Shown here in pieces: positions 7,251-41,200 of a stretch of DNA of 64,000 nt. Source of the stretch: Leptogorgia sarmentosa. Lineage: Eukaryota. How positions within the stretch are numbered: position 1 is the first letter of the stretch; each line of letters starts with the position of its first letter. The position numbers and the translations under genes were made by a program. Location: contig OZ210885.1 of the NCBI GenBank assembly GCA_964658305.1, positions 14,012,001-14,076,000 on the forward strand, given 5' to 3'. Below the pieces are notes generated by a model. That model saw only the letters and a list, made by a program, of their open reading frames with translations. It was not told the DNA's origin and searched no databases.

Positions 7251-7414
7251 ATACTTACCTGACGCGAGAGGCACCTTGATCAACTAGGAGGTCCTCTCAG
7301 GATGAGGCCCTTTCATTGCACTTCGACTGGGTTGACTCCTGCGATTACCCCTAATGTGGGTAACTCGAGCGTATAATTTCTGGTAGTGGGGACCTGCGTT
7401 CGCGCTCGTCCCCT
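7251..7414 (+). ncRNA. U1: U1 spliceosomal snRNA, intact, 164 nt
   Basis: 5' ATACTTACCTG; SL1 loop GATCA; SL2 ATTGCAC; Sm site AATTTCTGG; terminal hairpin with TTCG loop. Confidence 0.97.
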
Positions 7415-8113: not shown

Positions 8114-8140
8114 ATCGCTTCTCGGCCTTTTGGCTAAGAT
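8114..8140 (+). ncRNA. U2: U2 snRNA 5' part (nt 1-27), interrupted by Tx1 element A
   Basis: ATCGCTTCTCGGCCTTTTGGCTAAGAT is the universal U2 5' end. Confidence 0.95.
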
Positions 8141-9031
8141 ATTCTGGCTGTTGGTGAAGAAGATTAAGCTAAAAGAAGAAGAAGAAGAAGACAGAAGAAG
8201 AAGACAAGAAGAACGAAGATCAAGCCTGGTGAAGAAGATCGCTCCCTGCTGGTCTTGGTGTCCAGTCATTGGTTTCCTGTAGTTGTGCCTGTTTGAGGAG
8301 CCCTCTAGGGGGTAAGGCGGCGGACTTGTTTCCACCTTGCGTTGTTGCATCTGGACAGGTGGAAGTGCTTGACTGAAGCCTGTCACTCTCTGTTTCCTTC
8401 TCTGTATCTGTCCACGGGGGTTGGAAACCCTCCGTTATTTCTCTCCACATTTTATTTTTGATTGAGAGGCATTTTGTCCTCTGTTAGGAATTAATTTTTT
8501 TGTTTTTGTCCTCGTTTAGAAATTAACTTTTGTTTTTATTTTTGTTTTTGCTTTGAGGCTGTTGGTCCTCGTTTAGGGTTTTTTCTTCGAGGCATCTAGT
8601 CCTCGATTAGGTATAGTATTTTTTGTTTCGAGGCTGTTGGTCCTCGTTTAGGGTTTTTTCTTTTGAGGCATCTGGTCCTCGATTAGGTATAGTATTTTCT
8701 GTTTCGAGGCTGTTGGTCCTCGTTTTGGATTTATTATTACTAGGTTTTCTAAGTACGTTCTCTCGAAGCTTTAGGTCTTCGTGGAACAATTTAGGACATT
8801 TATTTTGTTGCGAGGCTGTTAGTCCTCGTTTAGAAATAGTTGGTTAATTTTTATTTTTTATTTTTTCTTCTTTAGAGTGTTACATTAAATTCCCTACATT
8901 ACTAGTTACTCTAGGTGAGTCAATGGTTCTCATCCTTTTCTTTCCGTCTGTAGTGGCTTAACTAGTTAAGTCACAGTACAGCTTTTTCTTCCTATCTAAA
9001 AATAGTGTAAAAATTTATAAAAAGTATTAAA

Positions 9032-10393
9032 ATGCGAATACCATTCGCCAATCGTACGGCAGATGTTGATCTGCCCTTAGCAGAAGGGCAGGCCAAAGTC
9101 AGCATCAAGGCCATAGTTGATTCTTTCTGGGACCAAGTCCCAAGTAATTTTGAGGCTTTGTTTGAAGCCTTCGTGCTACTATCACCTAGGAAGGTGAGAG
9201 TAACATGTCGAACCGAAAGAGCCCTAGAAGAAGTATCCCATTTAGGTCTCTCTTTCCACAACACCCCGGTCAAATTTAATCCATGCTGATCTGCCAAGTG
9301 GGTGACCATCACCCGACTTAGTTATGGAATACCAAATGAGGCCATTGAAGAGGCTCTTAAGCCATATGGCAAAATAATTAATATAAAGGCCGATACATAC
9401 AAAGGTGTGCATATAGGTATCAGGCATGCCTTAATTGAGATTAAAACGCCAATTCCGTCATCCATTCGGGTGGCAGACCATTGGTGCAACACCTTCTACC
9501 CTGGGCAAATTCCCACTTGCTTTAAGTGTAATAAAACGGGTCATACGAGGGCGCAATGCCCACAGGTCACTCAAGGTCAGACAACCACCTCTACTGAAAA
9601 CGCTGGAAAGGCAAGTGAACAGCAACCTGAACGAAGAGAGGCTGTACCTCCTCGTCGTCCTATTCCGACTTCATTCGCTGAAGCGGTTCAGCAAGGGCTA
9701 CAGGGCCCTAATACTGATGAAAGTAACACCCCAACTGCAGGTACTGTGCCGGCTTCTGATGTGACAGGTACGGCTACAGAGGTTAGCGAGCAACCGATGA
9801 ATGAGCCAGTAGTAAAGGTTGCCACCTTGGCAAATAAACAAGCCAAGCCTCCAGAGAGAGAGGATAATGTTGAGGGAAAGACACCATCAAAAGCGTCTAC
9901 CTCTTCTACCAAAAGACCACGGTGTGAAGTGAGTAGCACCGACAGTTCCGACAGTTCGGACAGTTCGGACAGCTCAGAAGAGCAGGAAGGCAGGGAGGAA
10001 GTGGCAGGTAGTGTTAAGTCTACTAGGCTTGACCCTTCCCAAGATCTCTTTAAAACTCCTGCTGAACTACTCCCTTTACCTCCAGAGGATGAAAATGAGG
10101 AGTCAAGCCAGCTTGACACCAATGACAACCAAAAGGAAACGACTTTAGAAACCCCCCAGGATCCCGACAATGATGGAAAACATATGCAAACGTCCCAGGC
10201 TACTGATTCTATGGAATTCCCTTTGACCCAACGCACTCAGGTGAAGTTGCCTTCGGTAAAACAAGTCTCTCCGACTTCTTCCGCTGATTTCGATTTGTTC
10301 TCCTCAAAAAAGACACGGCCGCGACCAGTCTTTGGCTCTGGCCGCACAACTCGCTCTCGTAAACTTTTGTTGAGGAGGGATTCTGTTGCGTGA
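9032..10393 (+). pseudogene. Element A ORF1 (RRM-like region, CCHC knuckle, disordered tail); one in-frame TGA at 9287
   Basis: ORFs 9032-9289 and 9302-10393 are in the same frame; YPGQIPTCFKCNKTGHTRAQCP. Confidence 0.88.
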
Positions 10394-10400
10394 TTTTTCA

Positions 10401-13400
10401 ATGGAAAGCGTTGAAATAATTTCTTTAAATTGTCAGGGTTTACGTTCCGTAGACAATCGGGACACGTTATTTTCATGGTTAAATTGCTGCAAAGCAGATT
10501 TTTCGTGTCTCCAAGAAACGCATGCAGTTTCAGAGGAAGAGATGTCATCATGGCTAAAATCCGCAAAGGATAACGGTATTCTCCGCAAGGAGTATGATTG
10601 TATTTCGTCCCCAGGAACAAATAGGAGTAGTGGGGTGGCCATTCTTTATCTGAGCAAGTACGAGCTTTCTTCTTGTGCTCGTGATGACAGTGGACGGATG
10701 GTTTCTGCCAGATTTTCTAGTGGGATATTTGAATTCCAGCTATGCAATATATATGGGCCTAATAAAGCAAAGGAAGGTGACGCCTTTTTTGAAAATTTAT
10801 ATGCGGTTTTGCCCCCCGACCTACCTGTGATTTTATGTGGGGATTTCAACACTGTAGTAGACCCCAATAAAGACCGTAGGGGCTGTAACCCATTTTCGAT
10901 CTGGGCATATAACTGGTCCCAAACATTATCGAACCTCATGTCCTCATACGACTTACACGATGCTTGGCGAACTAAATATCCTGAGGCGGTGGAATTCACA
11001 TGGCAACGTCCAAATAATCGTCAGGCCAGCGGCCTGGATATGTTCTGGGTATCTAGCTTTTTTCTACAATTAATTTTAACGGTAGGAATTCTCCCCTTTT
11101 TTCGTTCAGATCATTCATATATTCATATGAAATTTTCGGTGCCAACCACAGCAAATCGGGGTCCTGGGATCTGGACATTTAATACTAGCCTTTTAAAAGA
11201 CTTGAATTTTATTTTAATGGTTACCCAGTTCTGGGAATCATGGCAAAAGGAAAAAAATTCGTTCTTCTCCTTGTCTGCGTGGTGGGATGCGGGGAAAGCG
11301 AGATTACGCAGCAAAATCCGTACCTATTCCAGGAAGAAGGCTTCCACATCTCGAAAGTACATAAGAACGCTTGAAAATACACTCTTTTTCCTGAAGCGTA
11401 GAGCAGAAAAGGGGGAAGAGGTGAATGGCTTAATAGCAGACACTCAAGCCGAACTAGAAGAGGCTCATCGCCAGAAAGCTCGTGGAGCACGCATCAGAGC
11501 AAAGGTGCAGTGGGCTGAGGAGGGAGAGATCTCCTCCGCTTATTTTTTCAGGTTAGAAAAGAAAAGGGGGGAACAACGCCTCTTTACAGCCATCAAGGAG
11601 GTGTCGGGTCGGGTAGTTCGGTCACTGGCAGCCATTGCTGCGGCATGGGTAACCTTTTACACCACGCTATTCACGGCAATAATACTGGATTCAAAGGAGC
11701 AGGACTTCTTTTTGAACCAAATAGTAGACAAACTAACGTCAATTCAGGCACAGAGTTGCGAAGGGGAGCTCTCGTTAGAGGAATGTAAGAAGGCACTAGA
11801 CGGTATGGCACCTTCAAAATCGCCGGGAATTGATGGCTTCCCAGCTGAATTCTACCAGTGTTTTTGGCCACTCATTGGCCATGACTACGTTCAGGTCATG
11901 AACGGCTGTTACCAGGCCGGCATGCTGTCTGCCTCTCAGAGACAAGGCGTAATCACTCTATTGTATAAACGAGGTGATAGACTGGAGATGAAAAATTGGC
12001 GCCCTATTACACTACTGTGTGTCGATTACAAAATAGCTGCGAAGGCAATTGCCAATCGTCTTTTGAGGGTATTAGACACGCTGGTCCACACAGATCAGAC
12101 GTGCGGCATTCCAGGTCGGAGCCCGGTTGTCAACAATCGCCTGCTTTGTGACATTGTACAGGATGTCAACAAGCGGAAAGTAGGGGGGGCGATCCTCTCA
12201 TTAGACCAAGAAAAAGCTTTTGATCGGGTCGAGTGGTCATATCTCCAGGGGGTGCTGGAAAGCATGCAGTTTGGCGTATCCTTTAGGGGTTGGATACAGC
12301 TCTTTTATAATAATATTTTCTCCTGTGTTCTGGTTAACGGAACGCCATCTACCTTTTTTTCTGTGAGTCGAGGAGTGCATCAAGGCTGCCCTTTGTCGCC
12401 TTTATTGTATGTTTTAATGGCAGAAACATTGGCATGTGCAATTCGAGCGCACCCATCGATAGATGGGATTCCCTTACCCCGAACTCGGAGAGCGAAGATC
12501 TGCCAGTATGCTGACGATACGTCCATCATAGTGATGTCTGACACTGCCTTAACGGCGGTATTTTCAGTGTTTGGACGATATGAAAAGGCCTCAGGGGCGA
12601 AATTGAACGTTGCAAAGTCACACGGCTTGCTCATGGGAACATGGATTGACCGCACCAACTTACCTGTTGCCCTTGATTGGTCATCAACCAGTATCACCAT
12701 CATAGGATCAACAATTTCGAACCAGTCGGAGGAGAAAGACTGGGAGGCGAGAGTTTGCAAGCTCACAGAGCTGCTTGCCTCATGGCAGAATCGGCAACTT
12801 TCTTTTCATGGGCGGGCTCTAGTGGTCAATATGCTCGGGCTCAGCAAATTCTGGTACCATGCGTCGTTTTTGTGTTTGCGAGACCAAGTGGCGACTGACA
12901 TAGAGAAGCTGGTGTTTCCCTATGTGTGGAGGAAGAAGCGAGAAGGGATAGTTAGATCTTCGGTGAAGCAACGGTTTGGGCAGGGGGGACTGGGATTGAT
13001 AGATGTAAGGAGAAAGGCCGCCTCACTGCATGCAATGTGGATCCGTAGGCTAATCGAAAATCCAGAGGCTATGTGGAATTTCTTTTTCTTATATCATTTG
13101 CGCATAGCATTTACTGGGTGAAAGTTGGAAGACATCCTTCTGATGTCTTCACCTCCTCCACAGGACACTCTCCCTCCTTTCTACCAGTCGGTCATGAGGG
13201 CGTGGTTCCGACTGGATCGTGGAAAGGTAGATGGCGTAATTGTCGTGAAAACTCGCGGAGGTAGCATTCTTCCATTGACAGACTTGACTGCCAGTTTTGT
13301 TTATAGGGCTCTCTCTAGTATAGATCGGGAAGAGCACAAATGTGTAAAGAAATTTCAAACATGGGGACTAGAAGTAGAGTGGCGGACAGTTTGGGCCAAC

Positions 13401-13934
13401 CTCCAAATCTGGAGATTTATCAGACCAGTGCGCGACACGGCATGGTTAGCGACGCATGGCATCTTGCCAACAGCAGACCGCTTGACTCGGTTTGGCATGT
13501 CGGTGGATCCTCTGTGCCATTGCGGACAAGTCGAAACATTGATTCACCTCTTTGTGGATTGTCCGGTGGCAAAACACATGCTGAGATGGTATGTCTCCCT
13601 GACACAAAGATCGGTACCTTGGGTTGGTATGCCTACACCATCACAGGTGTTGGTAGGTTACAAACAAGTGGTCAAGATTCCACCAGTTTTTCCGTGCCTT
13701 CTCGGGATAATCAGGCACCGCATATGGGTAGCCAGGAATGGTTGGAGATTCGACCAGGTCCCCGTAAGATACGAGAGAGTTCTGTCAGCCATAAAATCTA
13801 CGCTGCGCTTTACGTTGCGCATGCAGAGGCGACACTGTCCAGTGGATAGGTTCTCGGAATTGTGGTTAGCTGGTGGGCTGTTTGGAGTGGTGTCTCGGGA
13901 AGGAGATCAAGTAATATTTCCAGGTGAGATCTGA
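10401..13934 (+). pseudogene. Element A ORF2 (APE endonuclease, RT, C-terminal zinc finger); one in-frame TGA at 13119
   Basis: SLNCQG, LQETH, GDFN, SDH; LDQEKAFDRV, QGCPLSP, YADD; CHCGQVETLIHLFVDC; ORFs 10386-13121 and 13125-13934 share a frame. Confidence 0.95.
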
Positions 13935-14926
13935 TAGTCTTAAGATGTAATGTAGTAACGGCGGGGGGTCGCCTTTGCTGGTAGCACTGCCCACAGTTGT
14001 GTCCCAGGAAGATCTGGTGGTCGCCTTAGCTGGTTGTACTGCCTGTGTTGGATTGGGTTGTATGTTTTGTCTCCCATGAAGATCTGGTGGTCGCCTTTAC
14101 TGGTTGTACTGCCTGTATTGGATTGGGCTGTCTGTACGTTCAATTTTTGTCCTGTGGTTTGCTCGGATTTCATTCGGGTAGGCTGCACAGGTTTTCAATG
14201 TTTTAGATCTTGGGGTCGCTGCTCATGTTGCATCCGTCTAGCTCAACATCACACTCCGACCATTTCACCATCATAGGTTAGGGATCCCTGGACGTGAAGG
14301 TGGGTAGCACCGGATCGTCCAGACCATTAACGGTTGTTTCATGGCACGGGGGAGGGGTTCATGACCTCAGTCGATCCGCGTCACCTGTAGTGACCCCCCT
14401 GAATGCGGCGATTGCACCGGGTTCAGGCTCCATTGCACCGTCGGAGTCGAGTAGCCCGTCGTCGTACAATTCAAAATAAGAACTCTAACTGTTGGTCCGA
14501 ATCCTCTTAGAAGTTCTCGTGGTGAAAGAAGATTTGTGCTCGAGGTTCGTGTTTCGTGGATCGTGGTGGTTTGGTGCTGTCCATCCATTTCCAGTCCTGT
14601 GAAGTCCTGTTCAGTGTTGTCAAAGTCTGTTCCTGTTTCCTGTGGCTGTTTTGCTGTTCGTTCGTGAAGCCTGGTCCTTGGTCTTGCGTTTCGTGTTTGT
14701 GCCCGTTTGCGGGGCCCTCTAGGGGGTAACGCTAAGGCGGTGGTCTTTTTTCCTTCTTTTTGTTGCGTCTGTGGTCAGGTTCGCCTGATCTCCTTGTTCG
14801 TTCTAATCTTTTCCAGGAGCAAGTGGCTTGTTCCTTGTGTGTGAAAAAAAAAAAATTTTTTTTTTGATAGGACTCAGTTGAAACAATTATGCCAGATTTA
14901 GGTCTTACTGTTAATTGTAGTCAAAT

Positions 14927-16366
14927 ATGATACCCTATATCAATAGGACAGTGGATGTTATTTTGTCCACTCAATTGGAAGCGAGGGATGTCAATATCCG
15001 TGAGGTCATTGACGAACTCAAATCACAATTTAATGGGTACGCACACATATTTGAAGCTGTAGTGCTTGTGTCTCCCGGTACACACCGGATTACATGTAAG
15101 AGCTCCCGTAAGCTTGAGCTTTTTGAGGCTGCAGGATTTTTCGTTAGGGGTCTGCCTGTTGAGGTCAAGCCCATTAACTCGTTAAAGTGGGTTAACATCT
15201 CTAGGTTATCCTATGGGGTGCCAGAAGATGCTGTTCGTGCGGCGTTAGCCCCATATGGAGACATTCGTCTCTTCAAATTAGAAAAATATTCAAATATTTA
15301 CACGGGTGTGCGCCATGTTTTGATGGAAATACGCACTGAGATCCCTACCCGCATTAGGGTTGCCGGCCATCATTGTGTGGTCTATTATAAAGGGCAAAAG
15401 CGTCCCTGTTTTTCTTGTGGACTAGTTGGACACTATACTGATAAGTGTCCGACCAAATCGGCTCCAGGGGCTGTAACTTCTAAGGCTAGCACGTCAGCTG
15501 AATGGGGGGCTACCGTAGAAGTCCACTCGGGCCAATCATATGCGTCTGTTGTTACCAGTACGGGGACTGCTGTTACTAGTACGGCGTCTGAGCCCGTTGT
15601 TAGGTCCTCTCCCATTATTACATCTCTTTCACCGGAGAGGTCGGCATCTGTTAACGTTCCGGTTGTGGTACCAGAGGTGCCTGACGTTGCAGGTGTGGTT
15701 AGTGAATTGCTAGCCTCGGTTGCCAGGGAGAGTTCGGCTCCTGCAGTCGACCCCTTGGCTCCCATGAATTTGGTTGTGGAGTCTTCGGCGCTTGGAGTAG
15801 AGCCGACAGCTGTCATTCAGGAGCCTGGAGCTCCTGTTGAGCCTCCGGCTTCCGCTGTGGAGCATATGGAGGCGTCCGTTTCTGCTCTAGGATCTGCGGA
15901 GGTGGCTTTAGCCTCCCGTACCCCATTGCCAGGTGGTGATGAGGTTGATACGGACACACCTCCATCGGCGGAGAGTCCCTCATTCAAAGGGAACAAACGT
16001 TCCCGGCCAAGATCTCTCACCAGGTCAAATTCGCGGTCTCCCATGAGGAAGGATAGGCGTAGTTTGTCTGCGTCCTCTGGTGACTCGGCTCGTGATGATG
16101 ACTCGGATAGTATAGGTGCACAGGGTAGGAGTCGGGGGCGGCAATGCCGTCCCGCGACCCTGTCAACGCCTCCTTTTTGTCCTGACATTATTCCTGCCCC
16201 ATCGACTATTGATTCTAGGACGTCCTCTTTAACTCAGTTCACCCCGAACCTGCCTTGTGTTACACAGGATAGGATTAACTTTGCCGGACCGGAGGTCTCC
16301 TCCGATGAATTTTCTTTTGGAGATACAGGAATGTCTCCTGCATCTCTCGTGAAAGATTTCGCTTAA
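14927..16366 (+). CDS. Element B ORF1 (zinc-knuckle nucleic-acid-binding protein), open
   Basis: 479 aa; WVNISRLSYGVP, YKGQKRPCFSCGLVGHYTDKCP. Confidence 0.88.
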   Translation: MIPYINRTVDVILSTQLEARDVNIREVIDELKSQFNGYAHIFEAVVLVSPGTHRITCKSSRKLELFEAAGFFVRGLPVEVKPINSLKWVNISRLSYGVPEDAVRAALAPYGDIRLFKLEKYSNIYTGVRHVLMEIRTEIPTRIRVAGHHCVVYYKGQKRPCFSCGLVGHYTDKCPTKSAPGAVTSKASTSAEWGATVEVHSGQSYASVVTSTGTAVTSTASEPVVRSSPIITSLSPERSASVNVPVVVPEVPDVAGVVSELLASVARESSAPAVDPLAPMNLVVESSALGVEPTAVIQEPGAPVEPPASAVEHMEASVSALGSAEVALASRTPLPGGDEVDTDTPPSAESPSFKGNKRSRPRSLTRSNSRSPMRKDRRSLSASSGDSARDDDSDSIGAQGRSRGRQCRPATLSTPPFCPDIIPAPSTIDSRTSSLTQFTPNLPCVTQDRINFAGPEVSSDEFSFGDTGMSPASLVKDFA

Positions 16367-16426
16367 CTTGTCTTGTTAGTTCTTTAGTTTATATTGAGTT
16401 TTGAGTATTGCCAATACATAATCTTG

Positions 16427-19400
16427 ATGGCTACCAATTACAGCGAATCATTGTGTTCTTTGTCGCTGATATCTTTAAATTGTCAAGGATTTAGAGATAG
16501 TTTTAAGCGTGCTGCATTTTTTTCTTGGTTAGCATGTGTGAAGGCAGACATCGTCTGTCTGCAAGAGACTCATGCCACCTCTTCGGAGGAGTTTTCATCT
16601 TGGGTTACATCCCAGTTCGACTCAGGTAATAATTCGCTAAGATATTTGGCGGTCTCTTCTCCTGGTACTGCTCGGAGTCGTGGTGTGGCGGTGTTGTACC
16701 GCCCATCATTGCGTGTGGTTCAGCAGTATGCCGATTCCGAAGGACGATTACAGGTCGTTCAGTTTTCCTGTGTGGCTAGTGAGTCGTCCTCATTTCAGGT
16801 TGTTAACTTATATGGCCCTAATCGTAAAGTCGAAGGGGAGGCCTTTTTCGAGGCGGTTGTCCCTCGCATTGAGGCGGGAATGTCTACCTTTGTTTGCGGT
16901 GATTTTAATACCGTGGTCAATCCTGATCTTGATCGCCGAGGTTGTAATTCTTCTTCCCCTTGGGCATATAATTGGCCAACATCTCTTTCTGTGCTTACGT
17001 CGCATTTTAATCTGTTCGATGTTTGGCGGGTCCGGCATCCAGATGCTCGAGAGTACACTTGGCATCGGGCAAATGGGTCACAAGCATCTCGTCTTGACAT
17101 GTTTTGGGTTTCGTCTGATCTTGTGTCAGGGGTGAGGGACGTGGAGATTTATCCGTTTTTCCGTTCTGATCATTCGTATGTGTTTTTGCATGTCAATCTC
17201 CCCAGCTTGCCTGATAGGGGTCCGGGGGTTTGGAAGTTCAATACTTCCCTTTTGGCAGACGTGGAATTTGTTGCTCAGGTGCGCACATTTTGGGCTAATT
17301 GGCAAGAGGAAAAGGCTGATTTTCCCAATCTCGCCGTTTGGTGGGATGCGGGCAAGAAAAGATTGAAGCGTTTGATGCGCTGTTATTCTCGCGAACGCGC
17401 TTCGGCTCGTCGTGCTCGTCTTACGTCACTTGAGCGTACATTGTATCACCTTAATCGTCGTGAGAATAACGGTGAGGATGTGAGTCAATTTATTGCTGAC
17501 GCTAAGGCTTCGATTGAGGCGGAGTATTCACACCAAGCTCAGGGTGCTCGGTTGCGGGCCAAGGAGCAGTGGGCAGAAGAGGGTGAGACGTCCTCAGCAT
17601 ACTTTTTCCGTCTTGAAAAGACTCGGTCGCTTCGGCGGCTTTTTACTGGCATTCGTAATGCCCAAGGCGTAGTTGTGCGTTCCATCTCGGCCATCATCCG
17701 GGTCTGGTGTATTTTTTATGTCCAGTTGTTTACAGTTGTTTGCTGCGGTTCTCTGCCCTAGTGACCAAGATTTCTTTCTGGAATCTTTGGATTCTACTCT
17801 GTCCGATCGTGAGGCTGCTCTCTGTGAAGGCGTTGTGACTAATGCAGAGTGCTTGACCGCTCTCAAAGGATTTGGCCGGAATAAGTCTCCTGGTATCGAT
17901 GGGCTTCCCTATGAGTTTTATTTGCGCTTTTGGGACGTGCTCGGTGGTGATTTAGTGGACGTCTACAATAATTGTATTACTCACGGGTCCTTATCGTTTT
18001 CACAACGCACGGGTCTTATCACTTTGCTGTATAAAAAGAATAATAAGTTGGATACTAAGAATTGGCGTCCTATCTCACTGTTGTGCACGGACTACAAGAT
18101 TCTCACGAATGGTTTGAAGCCTGTTTTGTCCTCCGTTGTGTCACCTTCTCAGGTGTGCGGTGTACCAGGTCGGTTTTCTGGGGCACACGTGCGTCTGCTT
18201 CAGGATGTGGTTAATTTTGCCAATATGGATAACATCGGTGCGGGAATTGTCTCCCTAGATCAGGAAAAAGCGTTCGATCGCGTGGATTGGGCGTTCATGT
18301 TGAAGGTGTTGAAGCAGATGAACTTCGGCTCGTCCTTTTGTGCCTGGGTACAATTATTGTATACCGATATTTTTTCCCACGTGATGGTCAATGGGTATGT
18401 TAGTGAGGGTTTTAAGGTTACCCGTGGTGTCCGACAGGGATGTCCTTTGTCTCCGCTGTTGTATATTCTTGTGGCTGAAACCATTTCGGCTGCTATCAAG
18501 AAGGATCCCGCGATTGACGGTTTGTCTTTGCCAGGTGGTGAGAAGGTGAAGATTTTTCAGTATGCAGATGATATTAGCATACTAGTCCAATCGGATCAGG
18601 CCTTGCAGGCCTTGTTTTCCTTGTTTGAGCAGTATGAAAGGGCATCGGTTGCTAAGCTCAATGTTGCAAAGAGTCATGGTCTGTTGGTTGGCGCCTGGAA
18701 GCAGCGAGTAGACTTGCCGGTTGAGCTGAATTGGTCGAATGATTTTATCACTGTCCTCGGGTGCCGGATAAGTAATGCTAATCAGGTTGATTGGCACTCT
18801 TTGTTGGAACGGTTCAATAGCCAATTGGTGTTATGGAAGCAGCGTCAGTTGTCATTTCGGGGATGTGCATTAATTGCCAATGCATTAGGGCTGTCCATTT
18901 TTTGGTATCAAGCCACTATTTTCGATGTACCCAAGACCGTAATTCATGCCATCAATAAGATCCTCTTTCCCTTTGTGTGGGGTAAGAAACGGGAATGGAT
19001 GGCTCGTACCTCTGTCACGCAACCTGTAGCCCAAGGTGGGTTTGGTGTGGTTGATGTGGCTCGTAAGATTTCGTCCTTGCGGGCGGTCTGGTTCCGGCGT
19101 TATCTCTCGCACTCGCCGCATCCTTGGTCGGTCTTTTTTAATTATCATGTGGAGGCAGTGTTTCATGTTTATCCGACTGCGGTTTTGAGTCGGGATTCCA
19201 TTCCCGCATATTTGATCAAGAGGCTTCCGGCCTTTCATGCCTCGCTTCTGCAGGTGTGGGCTGACCTGCATGGTAGGAAGGAGCAGGGTATCTGGGTGAT
19301 CCCTCGTCCTTCTGGGGATCCGTTACCTGTGGCTGAGTTAACAGCAGCCTTGGGATACTCGTTCCTCTCGAGACACCAGGTTGTTGAACATCGTTCTGTG

Positions 19401-19991
19401 GCTAAATTCCGCGATTGGGGAATTGGTGTTAGTTGGCCGTCTGTGTGGGCCAGTCTTCATTTGTGGCGCTTTGTGCGTTCTGTTCAAGATACTGCGTGGC
19501 TGACATTCCATGGTATCCTTCCTACTTCTGATCGTCTGGTTAGGTTCGGCATGAAGGTTAACCCTGATTGTTTTTGTGGCCTTCCTGAAGATCTTCTTCA
19601 TCTCTTTGGTCGATGCCAGGTTGCTCGCGACGTTCTTGACTGGTTTGTGTTGCAGGTTCAAGTTTCGTGTCCTTCTGTCACTTCTCTTTCTCTTTCCGAC
19701 ATTCTCTTTGGTTTCTCTTCTGCTTCTCCGGTTCCTGTAGTGTATAATGCTTTGCTTGGTATTCTTCGTCATCAGATCTGGCTTAGTCGCAACAGGCAGC
19801 GGTTTGAGGGTATTGACCCGGATGTCGCCGTGTTGTTGCGTAAGGCAAAATCCACCTTTCGTTTTCTTGTTCGAATGCACAAGCGCCATTGTCCACGCCA
19901 ACGGTTTATTGAGGTTTGGCTCGCCAACGGTAATGTTGGTCGACTTACGGATGAGGATTGGATTCACTTTTCTCGTGATTTTGTTACTTGA
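16427..19991 (+). pseudogene. Element B ORF2 (APE, RT, zinc finger), frameshift near 17740
   Basis: Overlapping ORFs 16394-17761 and 17673-19991 carry the EN and RT motifs (LQETH, GDFN, SDH, QGCPLSP, YADD). Confidence 0.93.
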
Positions 19992-21915
19992 TGTTGGTTG
20001 GTTGTTCTTTGGTGATGTTCGTTAGTGTTGTCCATGTTGATTGTTAGCCTGACGATGCGATGGTCGCCTTAGCTGGTTGTACTGTCGTTGTCTGACGGGG
20101 TCCTTTTTTGTCCTTGCATCTTTAATTTTTGCCCTGTGGTTCACTTGGGTTGCACAGGTTTTCCAATGTTTTCGATCTGGTTGAATCAGTGGGGTTGCTG
20201 CTCATGTTGTCGCCATCTAGTTAACATCATCCTCTAACTGTGTCATCATCATAGGTTAGGGATCCCTGGGCGTGATGGTGGTTAGCATCAGATCGTTCAG
20301 GCCATTCATGGTTGCATCATGTCATCATCGCGTCACCTGTAGTGACCCCCCTGAATGCGGCGATTGTGACGTTCGTTGATATTATGTTATACTTAAATGA
20401 AGTAGATCGCCTAGCGGTAGATTACTTCCGGCTCAAAGACGTAGCGAACACGTTGTTTTTCAAAAGGATAGAAACAGTCGAATTATTATTATAGTAAAAG
20501 TACTTTATATATCGTCAAAATCAGAAGTAAGTTTAGTAATATGTATTTGTAGTTTGTATCAGTAGTATGTATATTAGTTATAGCCTTTATTTACACGTTT
20601 TCCTTGTATTATTCTTAGTTTTTACCGCTTTGTTTACGTGCAATTTTGCTAAAATAAATTGGAGTGTGTTTGCACAACGCAGTGGTTAAATTCAAGTGAA
20701 CTTGACGCAGCAGCAACCTCTCGTGGTGTGTCGAGAACGCAACAGTAAAAATTCTGATTTCGCAGAATAAAGAAATCAAAGGTAAGCGAAAGTTTCGTAT
20801 TACACGAGTATGAGTATCAAAGGCGACAAGGACTCGTTTGAACCAAGTCAAACTATGGAGAATCAAAAGAGGATAATTACTCGGTCGAGTAAAGTCTTTC
20901 AAAACACTGTCAATGACAAAGTTGAGTTAGCTATATGCACCCGGAGCAATTTGATTACACTTATGAAGAAAGTCGAGGAATGTAACAACAACACTACTGA
21001 GAAACATATGGAGGAACTCATAAAAGTTACTAAGGAGTATGAACTCATAACTAATGAGCTTAAATGCCTGCTAGACCAGGACAAATATGGAGATTTCAGG
21101 GAGGAAGCTGATTGGCAAAAAAAGGAACAGACTATTAGCAAAGCACATAGCTTGATTAAGAATACCAAGACTGTGCAATCTGATAGACGCTCGCAGGCCC
21201 CCTCCTGGCGTTCAAGATCACACTCGCACCGCAGTCGTCGACCCTCTTCTTCAACGAGTAGCTATACTAGATTAAACGCTCTAGCAGAAGCCGCCGCAGC
21301 CAGAGAAAGCGCGGAGTACGAACGGGTGATGGCAGCAAAGGAGCATGATTGCCGTCAGCGAGAATTAGATCACGCAAAAGAAATGGCAGTATTGATCGCA
21401 GATAAGAAGGTAGCCATTGCCAATGCAAAACTGAAAGCCATCGAGGAGGCTTTGCAAGATCAGGAGCTAGGAGAGAGAGCCAGTCTTCCCGAAGTCCCAG
21501 AGGTAAGAGCCGAAAAAAGAACAGATGATTGGGTAAACTCGGTTGCTTCACAAGAAATTGTTGGTGAAAACCCCCACGTTTCCCCCCTTCCTACCACAAA
21601 TCTTGGGAATCCTATTTCAAACACAACTCCTGTAAAAAAGCTTCATGTTATTGTTATATTAGAATGGTGGGTTTAGGGCCACTCCCGTAGACAGCCTGTG
21701 CACGGGCGAAGAGTATAGGGGGTGTGGTTTTAGAAGGGAGAAAAAACAGTGAAGTAGTCAAGTTGAGTTGCTAAATAAAAATACAAAATTCGTGAGTCGT
21801 GAGGTTTTTTAAAGGAGACGTAACACCTCCGCGTGCGACGTTTTCGACACAGTGGCGACCCCGGCAGGATATCGAAGCACTGCAAAACAGTAAATGGCGA
21901 AGTCTGGCGAGTCTA

Positions 21916-22685
21916 CAGGGTGTATCAAAAAAAAGTTTACTCGCGAAAAATGTCTTTTAGGCCGAAGCGCACGCACCCCATTGCAAACCATTGGTATATC
22001 TAAGTAGTTTGAGCCCTTCGGATACATCCTACACTAAAAGTTTGCAGAAAACGACCATTTTACGACTACGAAAAGTGTTATAAAAAGCCGTAGTAAAAAT
22101 GGCTTGCGCGAAAAAATGTGAGGCGGAAAATGCAATTTGATTTGACAGCCTAAATCTATCGAACAAGTTTCATAAGTTATTCAAGTTTTGAGAAATTTGG
22201 TGCACGCTGAGACGAACGTGCGATGTCCAAAAACTGGATTTTGCGTTTTTTCCTGCGTGATTACCGATTAATTTATCCATAATTGGATATTTGCATTAAT
22301 TACCAATGCAAATTGCAAGCTAATTCCCAAGGTACGTAATTACGCGAAGAAATTGCGGAAAATCCAGTTTTCGGGCATCGCACGTTCGTCTCAGCGTGCA
22401 CCAAATTTCTCAAAACTTGAATAACTTATGAAACTTGTTCGATAGATTTAGGCTGTCAAATCAAATTGCATTTTCCGGCTCACATTTTTTTGCGCAAGCC
22501 ATTTTTACTACGGCTTTTTATAACACTTTTCGTAGTCATAAAATGGTCGTTTTCTGCAAACTTTTAGTGTAGGATGTATCCGAAGGGCTCAAACTACTTA
22601 GATATACCAATGGTTTGCAATGGGGTGCGTGCGCTTCGGCCTAAAAGACATTTTTCGCAAGTAAACTTTTTTTTGATACACCCTG
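21916..22685. mobile_element. Fold-back MITE of Tc1/mariner type with ~330-bp inverted arms
   Basis: TA|CAGGGTGTATCAAAA ... TTTTGATACACCCTG|TA; arms ~21916-22247 and ~22356-22685 are near-perfect reverse complements. Confidence 0.92.
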
Positions 22686-23053
22686 TATACAGGACCATAC
22701 CTTCAAGATCAAGTGAACATTGTGCATTTCTACGACGAAATTCTCGTGATTTGTGAGCCGTGGTAGGAAAATTAGTTAACGGTGTCTTACTTTGCTTTAT
22801 TATCGTGCGTTATTGGGGACTATTATTTTATTTCTTGTTCTTTTCCGTAAAATTATACGACAATTTGCGCTATATTTGGTGGTTAGTCATCATTTGGAAT
22901 CGTGACCACGTGAGTGATGTGAGATAAGGCCTGGAACGAGGCATACCGAGTACGTCATGTAAGAACATCTTTCGAACCTGTGATTCGCAATACATATTCG
23001 AGAGATTTTCGCCAGATCGGCGGACCCTGTTAAGTCATTTATTCACTAGACTA

Positions 23054-26000
23054 ATGGAAAAGGCAATGGAGGAACTTAGTCACAAAATAAAGACATTGAG
23101 GTTCAGAATGGGAAAAACAAATGATGTAATTGGCAAACATGATAAGGAGGCCCTCGAGAGGCAACGTTTATCCGTCACGACTATCTCAACCATGGTGAAC
23201 ACTTTAAAAGAGAATATTGAGGAAGGAATGTTTACAAAAGGTGATACAGAAGAACAAGTCCAAGAGTGGGCTGCTGAAACGGAAACCCTGCTGGCGCAAG
23301 CGGACCATTGTGTGAGGGAAATCACAAGAGAGCTCAGGGACCTGCAGATAGCGGCGGAGGAAGCTACCACAGTACAAGAGCAGCGAAAGAAACTGGAGTT
23401 TGAAAAGCTTTTGACCGAGCAAAAACTGAGACAAGAACAGCAAGCTGCACAAGTCGAATCCTTACAGACATTGGACAGTTTGGGTAAACTTGATGCAGCT
23501 GTTAGGTTTACACTCGACAAGTTGGAAGTGATTAAGTGTTGAAATGTGGACAAAAAACAACCCAGTCAGAGATCACCAAGGTGGAAGGTTCTGGAAAGAC
23601 AAAGGCAGATCGTTCTTTGCAAACCAGGATAGCAAACACAACAGTGGGTTCAAGGGCTGTCTGTATTGTTCCAGTGAGACGCACCGAGCGATCAACTGCG
23701 ACAAGGTTGTGAAACCTGAAGACAGGAAGAAACTCTTGGCGGAGAAGCACTTGTGTTTTAACTGCACTGGTGCGAAACACAGAGCTGCTGACTGCAAGAG
23801 CAAGGGAAAATGTCAAATCTGCCAAGGGAAACACCATACCTCCATATGTGACAAGAATGCCAAGCCTCGGGAGCCGGGTATGACAGCAAATCATGTTGGT
23901 CAAAGCGCTGTTATACACCCTGTGGTAGTTGTTCGAATAAATGGATACAGATTCCGTGCATTACTGGACAGCGGTGCCAGTCATTCATATGCCTCTTCTA
24001 CTGCCATCAATCTCAGTGGAGCTAGAGCTAGAGTAAAGTCGGTTGGTCTTCGACAGATTGCGATGTTAACGGGAGTGACTACAAGAACAATGCAAGTATA
24101 TGAGGTGAAAATGCAATCGTTGTCGGGTGAATTTGATTTGGACGTGAACGTTACTAAGATAGAGAAGAGAGAGTTGTTGTCATTGGAAAATCCCTGTTAC
24201 AAGGATGTTGTGGAGAAGCATGCTCACTTGAGAGGAGTTCGTATGGACGACGATTATGACGAGAAAGAACAGTTGCCAATCCACCTCATACTCGGAGCCA
24301 ATGACTATGCTAAGATACGTACTAGTGAGAATTTGCGGTTTTTTGAACCGGTGGCGGAACATACCAAGTTTGGTTGGTCCATTATGTCCCCTGGAACGTT
24401 CTCGGCTTAGCAGATACAACCGGGCAGCAAAGCAACGTTCTGGGTGAATTTAAGGAGCAGCTTACAAGGTCAGACGAAGGTTGGTACGAAACGGCTCTTC
24501 CATGGAGGCCCAGTCACCAACCTCTATTGAGCAATCGTGATGGTAGCCTCGGACGGTTGAACTCGCTCCTACGGAAGCTGAAGAGAACAAACATGCTGAA
24601 CGAGTACGATGCAATAATTCGCGACCAGATCAAGCAGGGAATCGTAGAAAGGGCTCCGGAAGAAGTTGTTGGGAAAGAGTTCTACCTCCCACATCGTGCC
24701 GTGGTGAGAGAGAATGCAGAAACGACGAAAACACGAATTGTCTACGATGTGTCGGCGCGCGAAAGGGAAAATACTCCGTCACTCAACGATTGTCTGCAGA
24801 CAGGACCACCGTTGCAAAACCTGCTGTGGAGTGTCATTATTCGAAATCGTTTTCATCCAGTGGCGTTAGCGGGGGATCTGCAGAAAGCGTTTTTGCAAGT
24901 TCGAGTGCGGGAGGCTGAACGAGACGTGTTGCGATTTCATTGGATCAAGGATCTGCAATCATCTGAAGTTGAGGTGCTTAGGTTCACAAGAGTAGTGTTT
25001 GGTCTTGCACCGTCACCCTTCCTCTTAAATGGAGTAATTCAACACCACCTAGAAAACCTTGAAACTCAGTATCCCACAAGTGTACCCGAAGTACGTAAGA
25101 GTCTGTACGTGGATGATCTTATATCTGGAGCTCCCACTACCGAGGAAGCCAAGAAGCTAAAACGCGATGCCATTGAGATCTTTGATGATGCACGATTTCG
25201 ATTGCATAAATGGAACTCGAATATTTCGGAACTTGAGTCGGACGCGTCTGAGAGTGAACTTACATTCGCCAAGGAACAATTCGGTGGAAACCCAACAAGT
25301 AAAGATTGTAAGCTACTAGGTCTCGGATGGGACAAACTCACCGATGCTCTGCGAGTAACCTTTCCAACCATACAAGCTGTGCTGACGAAGCGCGGAATTC
25401 TCGCATACTTGGCGAAAGTGTACGATCCCCTCGGAGTTGTATCGCCAGTGTTGTTGGATGGAAAACTGCTTTATCGTGAGATTTGTGAGTTAAAGATTCG
25501 TTGGGATGCGCCATTACCTGAGTCGGTAGCTAAACGTTGGGAAAAGGAGCTAAGGTGGAGCTACATTCGTTCGGAGATGCAAGCGGTCGAGGCGTGTGCG
25601 CAGCTGTTTATGCGGTGGTCAGGCAAGATTCGGGGGTCACGCAAGGGTTAATTACAGCGAAGTCTCGGTTGGCGAAAACTAACCTAACCATTCCAAGATT
25701 GGAGCTTATAGCGGGCCACATGGCCGTGAATTTAGCTGTGAACGTCAGAGATGCTTTACAAGGGTTCAAGGTCGCAGAAAATATCCATTGCTGGTTGGAC
25801 AGCACCGTGGCCTTACATTGGTTGAACGACAATGGGGAGTACCGCCAATTCGTCGCGAACCGAGTAAACAAGTGGCCACCTGGGATCGTGACCAAAGCTA
25901 ATGACGTTAGTGACGCAGAGCGGAAGGTTCAACGAGAACTGTCCATGGTGGGAGTCGAGGGCAGTGAACACCTTGACGCCCTCCTGGTCAATTTCGGCTT

Positions 26001-27494
26001 GCGTAAAGCCTTGAGGAGTTCTGGATGGGTTCCTAACCTCATCCACAATTCTCGAAATCCTTCCAAGAAGATCGATGGAGCGATGACAACTGATGAAGTG
26101 CTGAAACAGGAGCTATGTTGGATAAAAGGGACGCATAACAAGCGGTAAACACGGAGAAGTTTCGGGAAGATAAAGAGCAGTTAAATTTAAAATTGAACGC
26201 AGAAGGAATATGGGAATGTCGTGGCAGAATCCAAGGGCAGTATCCGATCTATTTACCTGATTGTGCCTTATTTACGACCAAAGTGGTACAAAGAGCCCAC
26301 GTTTGTATGTTACACGGTGGCGTGGATCTGGTTATGGCTAAAGTTCGTGAAAGATACTGGATACCCCGTCTTCATAAGTTGCGAAGATGGTCATCACCGA
26401 CTGTTGGGGATGCAAGAAATTTAGGACAGCTCCAGCAAAATCTTCACCTCCTGGTCTGTTACCGAGAACGCGAACCGAGAAATCTACCCCGTTCGACATC
26501 ATTGGCGTGGACTTCGCCGGACCAGTGAAGTATCGCAGCAAAGGGAAAGAAAGGAAGTCGTACATAGTTCTATACTCGTGCAGTTTAACTCAGGCGGTGT
26601 TGTTAGACTTGCTACCTAGCCTCGAAACGAAGGAATTCATCAAGAGCTTGAAACGGACGATCGCAAGAAGGGGAAGACCGTCGTTGATCTATTCAGACAA
26701 CGGGTCCACATTCGTCGCGGCGGCGAAGTGGTTGAAATCCGTACGCAAAGACGAAGAGCTAAACAATCTTCTCCGAAATCATTCGATATCATGGCGGTTC
26801 AATCTTAGCAGGGCCCCCTGGTGGGGGGGCCAATTTGAACGTCTGATCGGGATAATGAAAGCGGCATTTTACAAAACGGTCGGAAGTGGAGTGCTTACGT
26901 GGGACGAACTTGGCGAGGTGCTCCTGGACATAGAAATTGCAATCAATAATCGACCCCACCCTTACTCCAAATTTTATGTTGTTTCTGAATCCTAACTACC
27001 TACCAGAATTAAAGCCATATCATCACGAAGAAACAACCTTAAGAAAACGTGCAAAATTCTTAAGGAAAGCCAAGGACGAAATGTGGAGGCGATGGAGTAA
27101 TGAGTGTCTGAGGTCCCTCCGCGAACGCCATCGGTTGAAACACAAATCACAAGGCCACGTCATTGCAGTAGGTGATGTCGTATTGGTAAAGTCGACGGAA
27201 CGAAATCGAAACAACTGGCCGTTGGGAATAGTAGAAGCGCTGATTGTCGGCAAAGACGGTGCAGTTCGTGCAGTTCGACTGAGAAGCGGTCGTGATCGAT
27301 TAGAATGCGCGGTACAACATTTATATCCTCTCGAACTAAGTTGTGACCTCTACAAGGAAAAGGACGGGGAGAACAAGAAGAAATCTGTGGAGCTGAATCC
27401 AGAAGCACCCAAGTTCAAGCCGAAGCGACAGGCGGCGGTTGAAGCCAGTGAACGGATTAGCGAACAGTTAAACGATGAAGAACAGCGAGAATGA
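23054..27494 (+). pseudogene. Inner BEL gag-pol (CCHC knuckles, protease, RT, RNase H, integrase), frameshifted
   Basis: CFNCTGAKHRAADC, ALLDSGAS, YLPHRAV, LYVDD, LHSFGDAS, IPRLEL, GVDFAGP, SDNGSTF, APWWGGQFER. Confidence 0.93.
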
Positions 27495-29913
27495 CTGGTT
27501 AACTTTAAGTATATTCGCACGATACATTGAGCTTTATCAAAGAACAATTTCGTAACTGTTAGCGTATCCAAGAACATATGAATCGAATACGATTCATATG
27601 TCCTTGAAATCGATAAAAAAGCTTCATGTTATTGTTATATTAGAATGGTGGGTTTAGGGCCACTCCCGTAGACAGCCTGTGTGCGGGCGAAGAGTATAGG
27701 GGGTGTGGTTTTAGAAGGGAGAAAAAAACAGTGAAGTAGTCAAGTTGAGTTGCTAAATAAAAATACAAAATTCGTGAGTCGTGAGGTTTTTTAAAGGAGA
27801 CGTAACACCTCTGTGTGCGACGTTTTCGACACTCCCTTTGAAAATCCCCACGTATCCCTAGGTCCCACTACAAACCTCAACGGCCCACCCCCATCAACAA
27901 GTTTTAGCTACAACCCCCATGTTTTCGATGGTCCATCTACAAATAGAGTTCCAGTGATAAGTGTAGGCAACAGCCCACTTCACATGACCAACCAAGTTCC
28001 TATCTCCCAAGCCTACCACAAAACTGCATCAGTAAACCTTAACAGTACAGTCCCACTATGGAGTGTGAACGGTCGCCCACATCAAATACCTAATGCGCAA
28101 CCCCCCACCCAATTCAGCCAAGTTGGAGATGCGACCGGAAGTCAACTTATAGAGTCGCTGACATCAGCCAATCAACAAGTGGTCGCTGGCTTAGCAAGGC
28201 AAAACCTGCCGAAGTGTCATCCAGACATTTTTGGTGGTGATGCAACACTCTTTCATCCCTGGAAAAGAGCCTTCAAGGCTATGATCAAAGACACGTCTGT
28301 AACCTCTGAACAAGAGATTAATTATCTACGCAGTTTCACCCGTGGAGAAGTCCAGCGTGTTGTAGACAATTTCCGGAAACGCCATCAGAATGATCCCACA
28401 GCCCTTCTTCAGAACCTCTGGAAAGAACTAGAGACACGCTTCGGAAGTGCAGCTGTCATAACAAATGCCTTGTTGGAACGCCTACACAGCTTGTCGAACT
28501 TCCAAGAGAAAGACAACACCAAACTCCAAGAGTTCGCTGACCTATGTGTGGATGTGAACAGCCAGATCGAGAATCTACCTGGATTGGCTTGTCTACACTA
28601 CCCTGGAGCGATTCGCCCGATTGTCGCAAAATTACCAGCATCGATAAAAACGAAGTGGGAGAAGGAAGTCGTGAAACATGCTGAAACCCACAACAATGCA
28701 TACCCAGGCTTTAGCGTTTTTACTCAAGTGGTAAAGACTCAAGCAAAGATCAAGAACCATCCGAACATCCTTGCAGGCAATCTCCAGAAACTCGCTCTTG
28801 AAAGATATAGAGAAAAACCCAGAGATCAAAGGGCTCTGCGAACGAGCTTAGATGGCGAAAGCAAGAACCCATCACAATCCATCAAGAAGTGGTGTCCCTA
28901 CCACAAGTGTGATCGCCATGGACTAACTGAGTGCAAAGCATTCGAAACAAAAGCATTACGAAAACGAAAGAACAGAGTGGATACAGAAAGCAGGACTGTG
29001 TTTTCGATGCCTCAAAGAAGGACATCAAGCGAAGAAGTGCAAAGCCAAGATCAGCTGCTCCATTTGCGGACACGATCGTCACCTCGCATTGCTACACAAA
29101 GAAAAGGTGGAGAAAGAAAGTAAAGATGAGAATAAAGTAAACCCCGCTGATGGCGAGGAGAGTGCTTCCGAGCAGGTGACAAATAAATGTACAGCAGTAT
29201 GTGGCGAAAGTAACGGTGGCATTTCTTGTAGTAAATTCTTGCTTGTTGACATTGTCAAACCAGACGCAACGAATGAATCCTGCCGTGTATATGCAATCAT
29301 CGATGACCAGAGCAACAGTTCCCTCATCAGCAGCGAGCTAGCAGACATGCTTGGAGCAGAGGGTCCAAAGGAAAAATATTACTTATCGACATGCAGTGGT
29401 AGCAAGGAAACTAAGTTTGGTCGAAGAGTCTCCGGATTGGTCATAAGATCTGTTTCAAATGGTAGAGAAGTCCACCTGCCAACGCTTGAGAGCCAAGAAA
29501 TTGCTCGAGAGATTCCACCACTAGATGAAAGAGCAGGCGTGCATGTCCTTCTTGGCCGTGATGCACTTGAGCTACTGAAAGTCCGAGCATTCAAGAACGG
29601 AAAAAAGGGTGCCCCTTGGGCACAAAAGCTGTTGTTGGGATGGACTATTACTGGACAAATATGCTTAAATTTCTTGAACAGACCTGTCCACGTCGAAGCC
29701 CGAAAGACAAGCGTCATTCCAGATGGCACTGACGAAGCAGAAGTTTCTATCTCAGGAGGAGTAGATGGCTTGAAATATTATGTAGTTCCATGCCCGAATA
29801 CATTGGAGATTACAGATGGCATCATAGGGAGTAACATATTTCGCTCAAGCCCGCTTGATAATGAAGTCAGTCTTTCCATTGAAGATCGGAAATTCCTTGA
29901 GATAATGGAGAAT

Positions 29914-30043
29914 CTGTCGGGGTATACGAGATTTACCCCTCTCAGCCTGGAGCCAGAATTCGTATCCCCCTCAGCGCTTCGCGCTTCGGGGGATACGAGT
30001 TCTGGCTCCAGGCTTCGAGGGGTAAATCTCGTATACCACTCAG
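29914..30043. repeat. Long palindrome with ~55-bp arms around GCGCTTCGCGC; probable fragment of a non-autonomous fold-back element
   Basis: GGTATACGAGATTTACCCCT..AGCCTGGAGCCAGAA..CGTATCCCCC is mirrored by GGGGGATACG..TTCTGGCTCCAGGCT..AGGGGTAAATCTCGTATACC. Confidence 0.85.
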
Positions 30044-30644
30044 ACCTTCGGAATAAGTGTTAGTAACTCTGCTCGCAAGGTTTACTACTAGCTGCAGTTC
30101 TTTTTTGCAGACACGCCTTCTTCTTTGTTCTGTCTTCCCGCTGTCTGGCCGGCCTACTAGGTGTCAAGGTAGCAGTTTGTCCATTCTTTTTTCTTTTGGA
30201 CTGCTTTTCTTGTTCTTCGGAACTCGATTGGTAGTCTTTCCTGCTGTTTGTTGCGCGGTTAGCACGCGACACAGCATAGGGCCGCCCATTACAGTGTTTT
30301 TTTATTGTTTTTATTAGGTAGTGGGTAATAGCTCTTCTTGTGTGTGACCTGTCGAGGAGTCTGTTTGGGGACTACTCAAAGGTCGGTGGTCTTTTAGGTT
30401 CTTTTTTTTTTGCATTCGGTGTTGCGGATTGAGGTCGGTGGACCAACATATTCGTTCCCTGGCTCTTCTTCTTTAAAAAGGACCTTTCTTTCCACTTAGT
30501 TTTTTGATCCTTAGTGTGTGTGTGGGTCTTAATTTGTAGTACTTTTTAAGGCTCAATTTTCTTTGCCACTCGGGTCTTACCTGTTTTGGCAGTGTTTATT
30601 AGGATCAATTTGGTTTAGTTAAATAATTAATAGTAATTTTTGGT

Positions 30645-33201: not shown

Positions 33202-33547
33202 TCTTTTTAATCTTTCTTTCTTCCTCTGCCGTTCCGTGAAGGGGGGTCGCCTTCGTTGGTTGTACTGCCCCGATCGGTTCGGTAGGGTCGTTTTCTCTTT
33301 TTAAATGCCCGTTGCTGCCTGTATCAGGTGAGCATCGGTCCATGTACCGTCCTAGTATGTGTTGTTTTTTATATAGAGTTAAATGCACTAATCGAGGCGT
33401 CAGAAAAATAAATATTCTCGGGGTGCATTTAATGAGGAGGTAGGGATCGTCCCCCTAGTCGTTTGCGTGCCGGTAGCACCCTCCTCGATTTAGGGAAATC
33501 CATTGCACGCCCCCCAGTGGGGGTGGATTTGCCTATATCCAACATAA

Positions 33548-33709
33548 ACTTACCTGACGCGAGAGGCACCTTGATCAACTAGGAGGTCCTCTCAGGATGA
33601 GGCCCTTTCATTGCACTTCGACTGGGTTGACTCCTGCGATTACCCCTAATGTGGGTAACTCGAGCGTATAATTTCTGGTAGTGGGGACCTGCGTTCGCGC
33701 TCGTCCCCT
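33548..33709 (+). ncRNA. U1: U1 snRNA nt 3-164, promoterless, 3' flank of element D
   Basis: Matches 7253-7414. Confidence 0.95.
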
Positions 33710-34391: not shown

Positions 34392-34415
34392 ATCGCTTCT
34401 CGGCCTTTTGGCTAA
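34392..34415 (+). ncRNA. U2: U2 snRNA 5' part (nt 1-24), interrupted by element C
   Basis: ATCGCTTCTCGGCCTTTTGGCTAA after the same spacer as 7415-8113. Confidence 0.93.
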
Positions 34416-40276: not shown

Positions 40277-40605
40277 TAAGATCAAGTGTAGTATCTGTTC
40301 TTATCAGCTTAATATCTGACATCTACTTCATTCAATCACCATCATAGAGTTAGGGAACCCCAGGCGTGACAGCGCTTAGCACTTGATCGTCAGGGCCACT
40401 CACGAGTCGTTCCATGGCACGGGGGAGAGGGTCGTACTCTCTGTTGATCTGCTTGCTGTGTAGCAACCCCCTGGGTGCGGCGTTCACACAAAAGTTCAGG
40501 TTCCATTGCACCGACGGAACCGGATCAGAAACGATCCAAACTTTACGTCGTTCAATTCAAAATAAGATCAAGTGTAGTATCTGTTCTTATCAGCTTAATA
40601 TCTGA
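40034..40605 (+). repeat. Two imperfect 286-bp direct repeats (element C 3' end plus U2 nt 22-64)
   Basis: 40034-40319 and 40320-40605, differing at about 6-7 positions in the element part. Confidence 0.92.
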
Positions 40606-41183: not shown

Positions 41184-41200
41184 ATACTTACCTGACGCGA
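41184..41200 (+). ncRNA. U1: U1 snRNA nt 1-17, interrupted by element E
   Basis: ATACTTACCTGACGCGA directly after the U1 promoter. Confidence 0.92.

Follow-up and report, generated by a model that had tools for sequence, protein, structure and literature searches.

A clade of Tx1-type LINEs carries, shortly before the 3' terminus of the element, a hairpin whose loop begins with the heptamer AUUGCAC above a C:G closing pair, in the manner of U1 stem-loop II. Since the loop is conserved between families, the stems covary and the recognition rules published for U1A/SNF are followed, recruitment of a host snRNP protein to the element 3' end, as put forward in the original prediction, is the best reading; of the same proposal, a PIE-like geometry was not supported, and a tie of the heptamer (in the following also called the box) to snRNA targeting is partly contradicted. 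The hairpin is a real, conserved and, as it seems, hitherto undescribed cis-element of a known kind of retrotransposon: in the openly accessible literature on Tx1, Keno and U1A-type sites in retrotransposons, no description of a U1A-type site at a LINE 3' end was found.

The snRNA gene cluster and its terminal hairpins

The window, a stretch of 64,000 nucleotides from Leptogorgia sarmentosa (contig OZ210885.1), is a U1/U2 snRNA gene cluster packed with Tx1-type LINEs. Rfam matches comprise U1 at 7251-7414 and 33546-33709 and U2 pieces at 40265-40362 and 40551-40734; 5' fragments of U2 (8114-8140, 34392-34415) and of U1 (41184-41200, 58246-58262) are also present. The U1 gene at 7251-7414 (+ strand) is intact; its stem-loop II, where the heptamer (7315-7321) opens a 10-nt loop closed by C:G, served as the host model of the element hairpin. 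The retrotransposons between the snRNA pieces lie on the + strand and possess a zinc-knuckle ORF1, an ORF2 with apurinic-type endonuclease, reverse transcriptase (RT) and C-terminal zinc finger, and a target duplication. We presume the Tx1 assignment from domain layout and target specificity, the RT tree comprising the elements collected here. The only species-named homologs in two protein searches were from the octocoral Paramuricea clavata (64% and 68%), which points to a probable cnidarian host. Bases 1-282 of the window are identical to bases 63719-64000 (282 bases).

Element A (8141-14476, +) starts after U2 nt 27, the U2 5' fragment of nt 1-27 (8114-8140, +) being located behind a U2 promoter; it contains an ORF1 with zinc knuckle and an ORF2 (10374-13934, +) for endonuclease and RT with one internal stop. 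Its end consists of an A4 tail and a 5-nt duplication of U2 nt 22-26 (14473-14481, +), and A-family copies from other samples continue into U2 at the corresponding position. Among the public sequencing runs listed with a match, none was of RNA, which carries no information on expression. Element B (14482-20366, +) is a tandem insertion behind A, with its 3' end cut just inside the terminal domain; there, a BEL/Pao-type LTR retrotransposon coding sequence (20367-30060) interrupts it. Family D is U1-inserted, its end abutting nt 3 of the U1 gene that follows directly (33548-33709, +). Element C (34416-40276, +) lies behind U2 nt 1-24 (34392-34415) and has two 3' ends because its last 286 nt are duplicated; the tandem duplication at 40277-40562 comprises these plus U2 nt 22-64. 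Both 3' ends of C show A4 followed by U2 from nt 22. The duplicated 3' end (40320-40562, +), which carries the hairpin at 40499-40521, precedes U2 nt 22 to end (40563-40734, +), in which the heptamer of U2 stem-loop IV itself is found at 40703-40709. The region 54823-58050 contains an RT fragment and an ORF that stops shortly upstream of a U1 promoter piece (58216); it gave no match to the Tx1 ORF2 query and may belong to another LINE type.

All sequences and coordinates of the original prediction proved correct, including the stems GGCUCC/GGAGUC of A and GGUUCC/GGAACC of C. The terminal domain of A (14405-14465, +) is composed of an outer helix (14405-14410/14460-14465) and an inner helix (14418-14423/14453-14458); within it, the terminal hairpin (14426-14448, +) has a 6-bp stem, a C:G closing pair and an 11-nt loop beginning with AUUGCAC (14432-14438). 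The loop is open in the predicted fold (z -2.6, as stable in 4 of 200 shuffles). The hairpin of the second C copy (40499-40521, +) likewise shows a C:G closing pair and an 11-nt loop; its end scored z -3.4, but three extra pairs partly close the predicted loop. In the first C copy (40213-40235), a G.G mismatch occupies the second pair, beside the closing pair, and the hairpin is not formed in the fold prediction (z 0.40). The terminal structure of D (33496-33530, +; predicted fold z -3.2) supplies a third terminal AUUGCAC site, which had escaped the original prediction. Its heptamer (33502-33508) follows a C paired with G and occupies a bulge or internal loop that is capped by an additional hairpin.

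The second AUUGCAC of A, predicted to occupy a 7x1 loop, is present at 14411-14417 (+) in an internal loop, where it is preceded by G, but it is conserved neither in C nor in the common A variant. The two C copies have UUCGCAC or UUCACAC at the corresponding position, and five of its letters are changed in the common A variant (seen in 2 of 4 runs); of the 12 differences of that variant 9 were listed, none of which falls in the hairpin at 14426-14448. By number alone, AUUGCAC does not stand out in the window, with 14 occurrences where 9.4 are expected and an equal or higher count in 9 of 100 shuffles; the signal is carried by the position and structure of the heptamer, not by its frequency.

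Conservation of the hairpin among relatives

Relatives were collected independently of the box, using as search handle a 23-nt 3' UTR motif that is located just after ORF2 and identical in all five Tx1 families of the window (8 matches, 0 expected). In A, two exact copies lie within 14019-14111 (+), with a variant at 13967-13989; the other sites are 20062-20084, 33245-33267, 39755-39777, 46938-46960 and 61413-61435. Box-less Keno-type elements have the motif as well, and it is frequently repeated in tandem. A scan of metagenome contigs with this motif yielded 36 loci; in 16 of the 20 with a readable 3' end, the heptamer, or a form of it differing in one letter, precedes a short A run by 33-36 nt. 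Viral contigs, also scanned, contributed no usable sequence. The other 20 loci comprise one that belongs to the same group as the box carriers but lost the heptamer by an internal deletion (L014), three Keno-type box-less elements (L006, L027, L030), twelve unreadable ends and four apparently unrelated sequences (three bacterial-looking, one adjoining 28S rRNA). Targets of the metagenome elements were U1 (L005, L008, L010, L014, L018, L033), U5 (L004 by Rfam; L019 and L032 probable) and other sequence.

The 23-nt motif also led to G001, a bacterial genome bin which contains animal contigs (C5, C11, C31, C46, C57, C68); these consist of U1-U2-5S repeat units crowded with Tx1 elements whose ORF2 frames are open over long distances. 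Twelve matches in this bin, selected by ORF2 protein similarity, comprised seven with the box (one with a damaged arm), one Keno-type box-less element and four counted as without readable end, three of them from inspected sequence. A member of the box clade, L046, ends a few bases before a tRNA-Gln gene (L046:1870-2005), with 11 pairs counted in its stem. An RT search with 19 matches added one truncated copy and three box-less ends, of which L058 is Keno-type, while L060 and L061 have no snRNA target. Two further carriers (L051, L055) were retrieved by an RNA covariance model and thus are not independent of the box motif. Additional AUUGCAC matches in L003, L010, L013 and L035 form no such hairpin and were counted as chance. 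Near a U2 promoter, Rfam weakly recognised a hammerhead ribozyme in L059:3225-3278 (E 0.007), short of the gathering score.

In total, 33 ends were scored by one lenient rule (box, C:G pair and stem), which was satisfied by chance in 9 of 1980 shuffled 80-nt ends. Of the 29 ends belonging to the box clade, 24 passed, four retained the heptamer with a damaged arm (L005, L008, L021, L045), and one had lost the box by deletion. After omission of 12 duplicate or damaged rows, 17 distinct hairpins, picked as undamaged representatives, were arranged in a structure-anchored table. The heptamer columns read A in 16/17, UUGCA in 17/17 and C in 16/17, the exception being a G; every one of the 17 loops is closed by C:G. 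The terminal loop is kept between families whose RT regions are about 40% identical, in agreement with the predicted conservation of AUUGCAC across copies. The linker following the heptamer measures 3-5 nt or is an added hairpin of 13-16 nt (D, L037, L040). The site is kept in three topologies, and no loop is shorter than 10 nt. Some families have two good sites about 49 nt apart; most have one box. L043 and the first box of L040 carry a U at position 1, which lowers affinity.

The predicted covariation of the stem was borne out by the collected family 3' ends. Stem pairs 2-5 of the 17 hairpins each occur as three to five pair types, yet 66 of 68 cells are paired, as compared to 37 +/- 4 in a swapped-arm control (0 of 10000 as high as 66). 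In the 13 sequences from outside the window, double changes are found at five of seven pairs; the covariation score was reached by 0 of 500 shuffles, and slid controls paired in 28-49% as against 90% observed, with all of these controls ignoring kinship among the sequences. Because the box was probably inherited once, the 17 hairpins do not count as independent cases. When the 13 non-window ends were used to build a covariance model, it recovered the held-out L043, L046, L037 and L040 (E <= 0.001); A, C and D were not found by it at E <= 5, so only the loop and the closing pair link the two groups. The element stems resemble neither the host U1 or U2 stems nor one another.

A further conserved RNA domain, composed of several arms of which one resembles a tRNA T-loop, precedes the box hairpin in L005, L009, L013, L018, L032, L033, L035, L040, L043 and L045, with double changes at 9 of 23 predicted pairs. 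It had no match in Rfam. A similar-looking multi-arm domain is located in D near 33435-33486. Rfam searches of two 3' ends at E <= 10 returned chance matches only. AUUGCAC shares its letters with the seed of miR-25/92; a relation to this microRNA was rejected, as the motif has the microRNA's own sense and not that of a target site.

Lineage, targets and poly(A) signals

In an RT tree (28 of 38 rows; FastTree with SH-like support, rooted on the most distant element), all box carriers fall into a single clade (0.998), and the Keno-type elements are its sister group (0.984). The box was probably gained once. The L030 row may be a mosaic of two elements. The RT regions of A and C are 40-42% identical to those of the other box carriers. 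D, which has no RT region, groups with the box carriers in a C-terminal tree (0.942).

U2-gene-specific Tx1 elements are already known, and Keno and Utopia share a U2 site that leaves the first 38 nt upstream, according to the accessible text of two reports (PMC4640811, PMC4494074). The same site is used by L027, L030, L047 and L058; four of the five box-less Keno-type ends are located at U2 +38, and the fifth probably is. The junctions of A and C, at U2 nt 22-27, are not at the Keno/Utopia site. With respect to the sites described in the accessible parts of those reports, both the U2 nt 22-27 and the U1 nt 3 targets differ. The original prediction had connected the box with snRNA-gene targeting. 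U1-, U2- and U5-targeting members do carry it; however, so does the tRNA-Gln neighbour L046, whereas Keno-type elements in U2 do not. The box follows lineage, not target class.

The hairpin sits 33-54 nt before a short A run, the tails consisting of 2-10 A. A hexamer A[AU]UAAA at 10-30 nt before the tail was found in none of the 29 box-clade ends, two of which have a hexamer at -7 and -3. In contrast, AAUAAA is present at -13 to -16 in all five Keno-type ends, none of which has the box. This opposition of box and AAUAAA amounts to a single phylogenetic contrast and therefore cannot prove a trade-off. The proposed block of polyadenylation is not supported, as box-clade ends offer no AAUAAA as its point of attack.

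Probable SNF binding, possible roles and known systems

According to the accessible text of PMC4114683, binding by U1A/SNF requires a stem-loop with a loop of at least 10 nt, A at position 1 and a C:G closing pair, whereas the 3' loop nucleotides are without protein contacts, and C or G at position 7 is tolerated by reconstructed pre-duplication and U2B''-branch proteins. A single SNF serves both snRNAs in metazoans other than jawed vertebrates, and the C:G pair and C7 confer higher, U2A'-independent affinity, as stated in the accessible part of PMC5992148. The element hairpins show the heptamer, a stem closed by C:G and a loop that measures no less than 10 nt and is free in its 3' part, as expected for a site of the U1 stem-loop II type, and the loop of L009 is identical to that of Drosophila U1 stem-loop II with which binding was assayed in PMC5992148, as given in its accessible text. 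Since conserved and variable positions of the elements follow the published rules point by point, host SNF (U1A/U2B'') probably binds the terminal hairpins, and from the established biochemistry of SNF we infer that such binding would be of high affinity and independent of U2A'. In the U2 genes of L047, L058, L027 and L030, the stem-loop IV loop reads AUAGCAC or ACAGCAC and not AUUGCAC. In a second host, the U2 loop is AUAGCAC while its elements keep the U1-type loop.

As to function, the absence of a poly(A) signal together with tails of only 2-10 A favours a positive role of SNF, and the SNF-bound hairpin could well constitute a 3' handle that replaces poly(A) on the element RNA, a tentative reading drawn from sequence. 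The elements are inserted directly behind snRNA promoters. Their RNA would be read through from such a promoter and not be polyadenylated; SNF on the terminal domain might protect it, aid its return to the nucleus and its local concentration at snRNP-rich snRNA gene clusters, and the SNF-bound end might present the A-rich terminus to ORF2p for target-primed reverse transcription. In a broader and slightly more tentative formulation, an old Tx1 clade may have left the poly(A) pathway and may disguise its RNA 3' end as part of the U1 snRNP, with SNF as both a required cofactor and an address label that would protect the RNA, carry it to snRNA gene clusters and pass it to the reverse transcriptase. 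As read-through U1 and U2 transcripts already hold a native SNF site downstream, the extra site in the element needs a reason of its own. In the accessible main text of a proteomic study of human U2 genes (PMC9138887), neither U1A nor U2B'' is mentioned, a point against this mechanism.

The predicted binding of SNF is also compatible with an inhibitory effect, whereby free SNF, raised by disruption of U1 and U2 genes, would bind the element RNA and block its 3' processing or translation, so that the parasite limits its own copy number; the polyadenylation block of the original prediction is one form of this. U1A autoregulation indeed operates by free protein on a 3' UTR element (PMC6884704, accessible text), and families with two boxes recur. 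However, the PIE acts through a pair of U1A molecules bound to a bipartite element whose spacing from the poly(A) site is fixed (PMC6884704 and PMC1903381, accessible text), whereas most families here have one box, none has AAUAAA in place, and the Rfam PIE model matched neither the window nor the two 3' ends examined. The likeness to PIE seen in A breaks down as well, since its second 7x1 box is not conserved and both boxes, one in an internal loop and one in a hairpin, are on one strand instead of occupying two asymmetric internal loops of one stem; a poly(A) signal at a conserved distance was present in 0 of 29 box-clade ends. Moreover, U5- and tRNA-Gln-targeting members keep the box though their insertion would not free SNF, and Keno-type elements that disrupt U2 are without it, which makes the inhibitory role unlikely.

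The reader of the loop might instead be encoded by the element itself, in the form of the ORF1 RRMs or the ORF2 RT, as for the 3' stem-loops of other stringent LINEs, the likeness to an SNF site being incidental or a relic. ORF1 folds into two RRM-like domains which structurally match UP1, HuR and Sxl, for which reason it could itself be the loop reader, and the near-fixed distance of the hairpin from the start of reverse transcription is consistent with such a role. Yet a search of PDB chains at E <= 10 detected no sequence likeness of ORF1 to U1A, which is also missing from the top structural matches listed for ORF1. The positions read by SNF are kept across ORF2 proteins that are only 28-46% identical, whereas drift would be expected of a protein-RNA pair private to the element, and by analogy such a loop would be predicted to bind host SNF anyway; we consider recognition by the element's own proteins rather improbable. 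That the hairpin is without present function, having arisen by chance or been picked up through template switching on U1 stem-loop II or U2 stem-loop IV, is suggested by the location of the elements in snRNA genes, by the capture of snRNA pieces by Tx1 and SINEU (PMC4494074, accessible text), and by the existence of damaged copies. The stems, however, differ from those of host U1 and U2 and from each other and yet stay paired, and the site survives in three topologies against a chance rate of 9 in 1980. This explanation is largely refuted by the covariation, and we regard it as very improbable.

Recruitment of SNF as a positive 3' handle would touch on two open questions, namely by what means a LINE that lacks a poly(A) tail labels its RNA for reverse transcription, and in what way site-specific LINEs reach their target genes. 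A well-studied protein-RNA pair of known structure and binding rules appears here as a conserved retrotransposon cis-element, for which the box-less sister clade provides a natural control. If true, a spliceosomal protein has been co-opted as host factor for site-specific retrotransposition, which could inform the design of site-specific retrotransposon tools.

The elements resemble Keno in being endonuclease-RT Tx1 elements inserted in sense orientation into snRNA genes, and the Keno-type elements are the sister clade in our tree; they differ from Keno, as far as it is described in the accessible text (PMC4640811, PMC4494074), in that A and C are inserted at U2 nt 22-27, D and its relatives at U1 nt 3, and others at U5 or beside tRNA-Gln. 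At their 3' ends, the Keno-type elements of this collection have AAUAAA and no box, and the box clade shows the opposite. With the U1A PIE (RF00460; PMC6884704, PMC1903381, accessible text), they share a 3' UTR heptamer of the U1A type, which some families place in an internal loop or possess twice, but they are without paired internal loops in one stem and without an adjoining poly(A) signal. Like U1 stem-loop II and U2 stem-loop IV, the element site has a loop no shorter than 10 nt above a C:G pair, with AUUGCAC on the 5' side and free nucleotides on the 3' side, its loops being of the U1 and not of the U2 type; in contrast to these snRNA loops, it ends a retrotransposon RNA of several kilobases, is borne on unrelated stems, and sometimes has an added hairpin in place of the linker. 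Alu RNA, which is bound by SRP9/14, is an example of a retroelement RNA that gains access to its enzyme or compartment through a protein-binding module of a host RNP. The strategy of host-RNP mimicry would, if our reading is true, be comparable; whereas Alu is a derivative of the whole 7SL RNA and non-autonomous, here an autonomous LINE keeps the minimal loop only.
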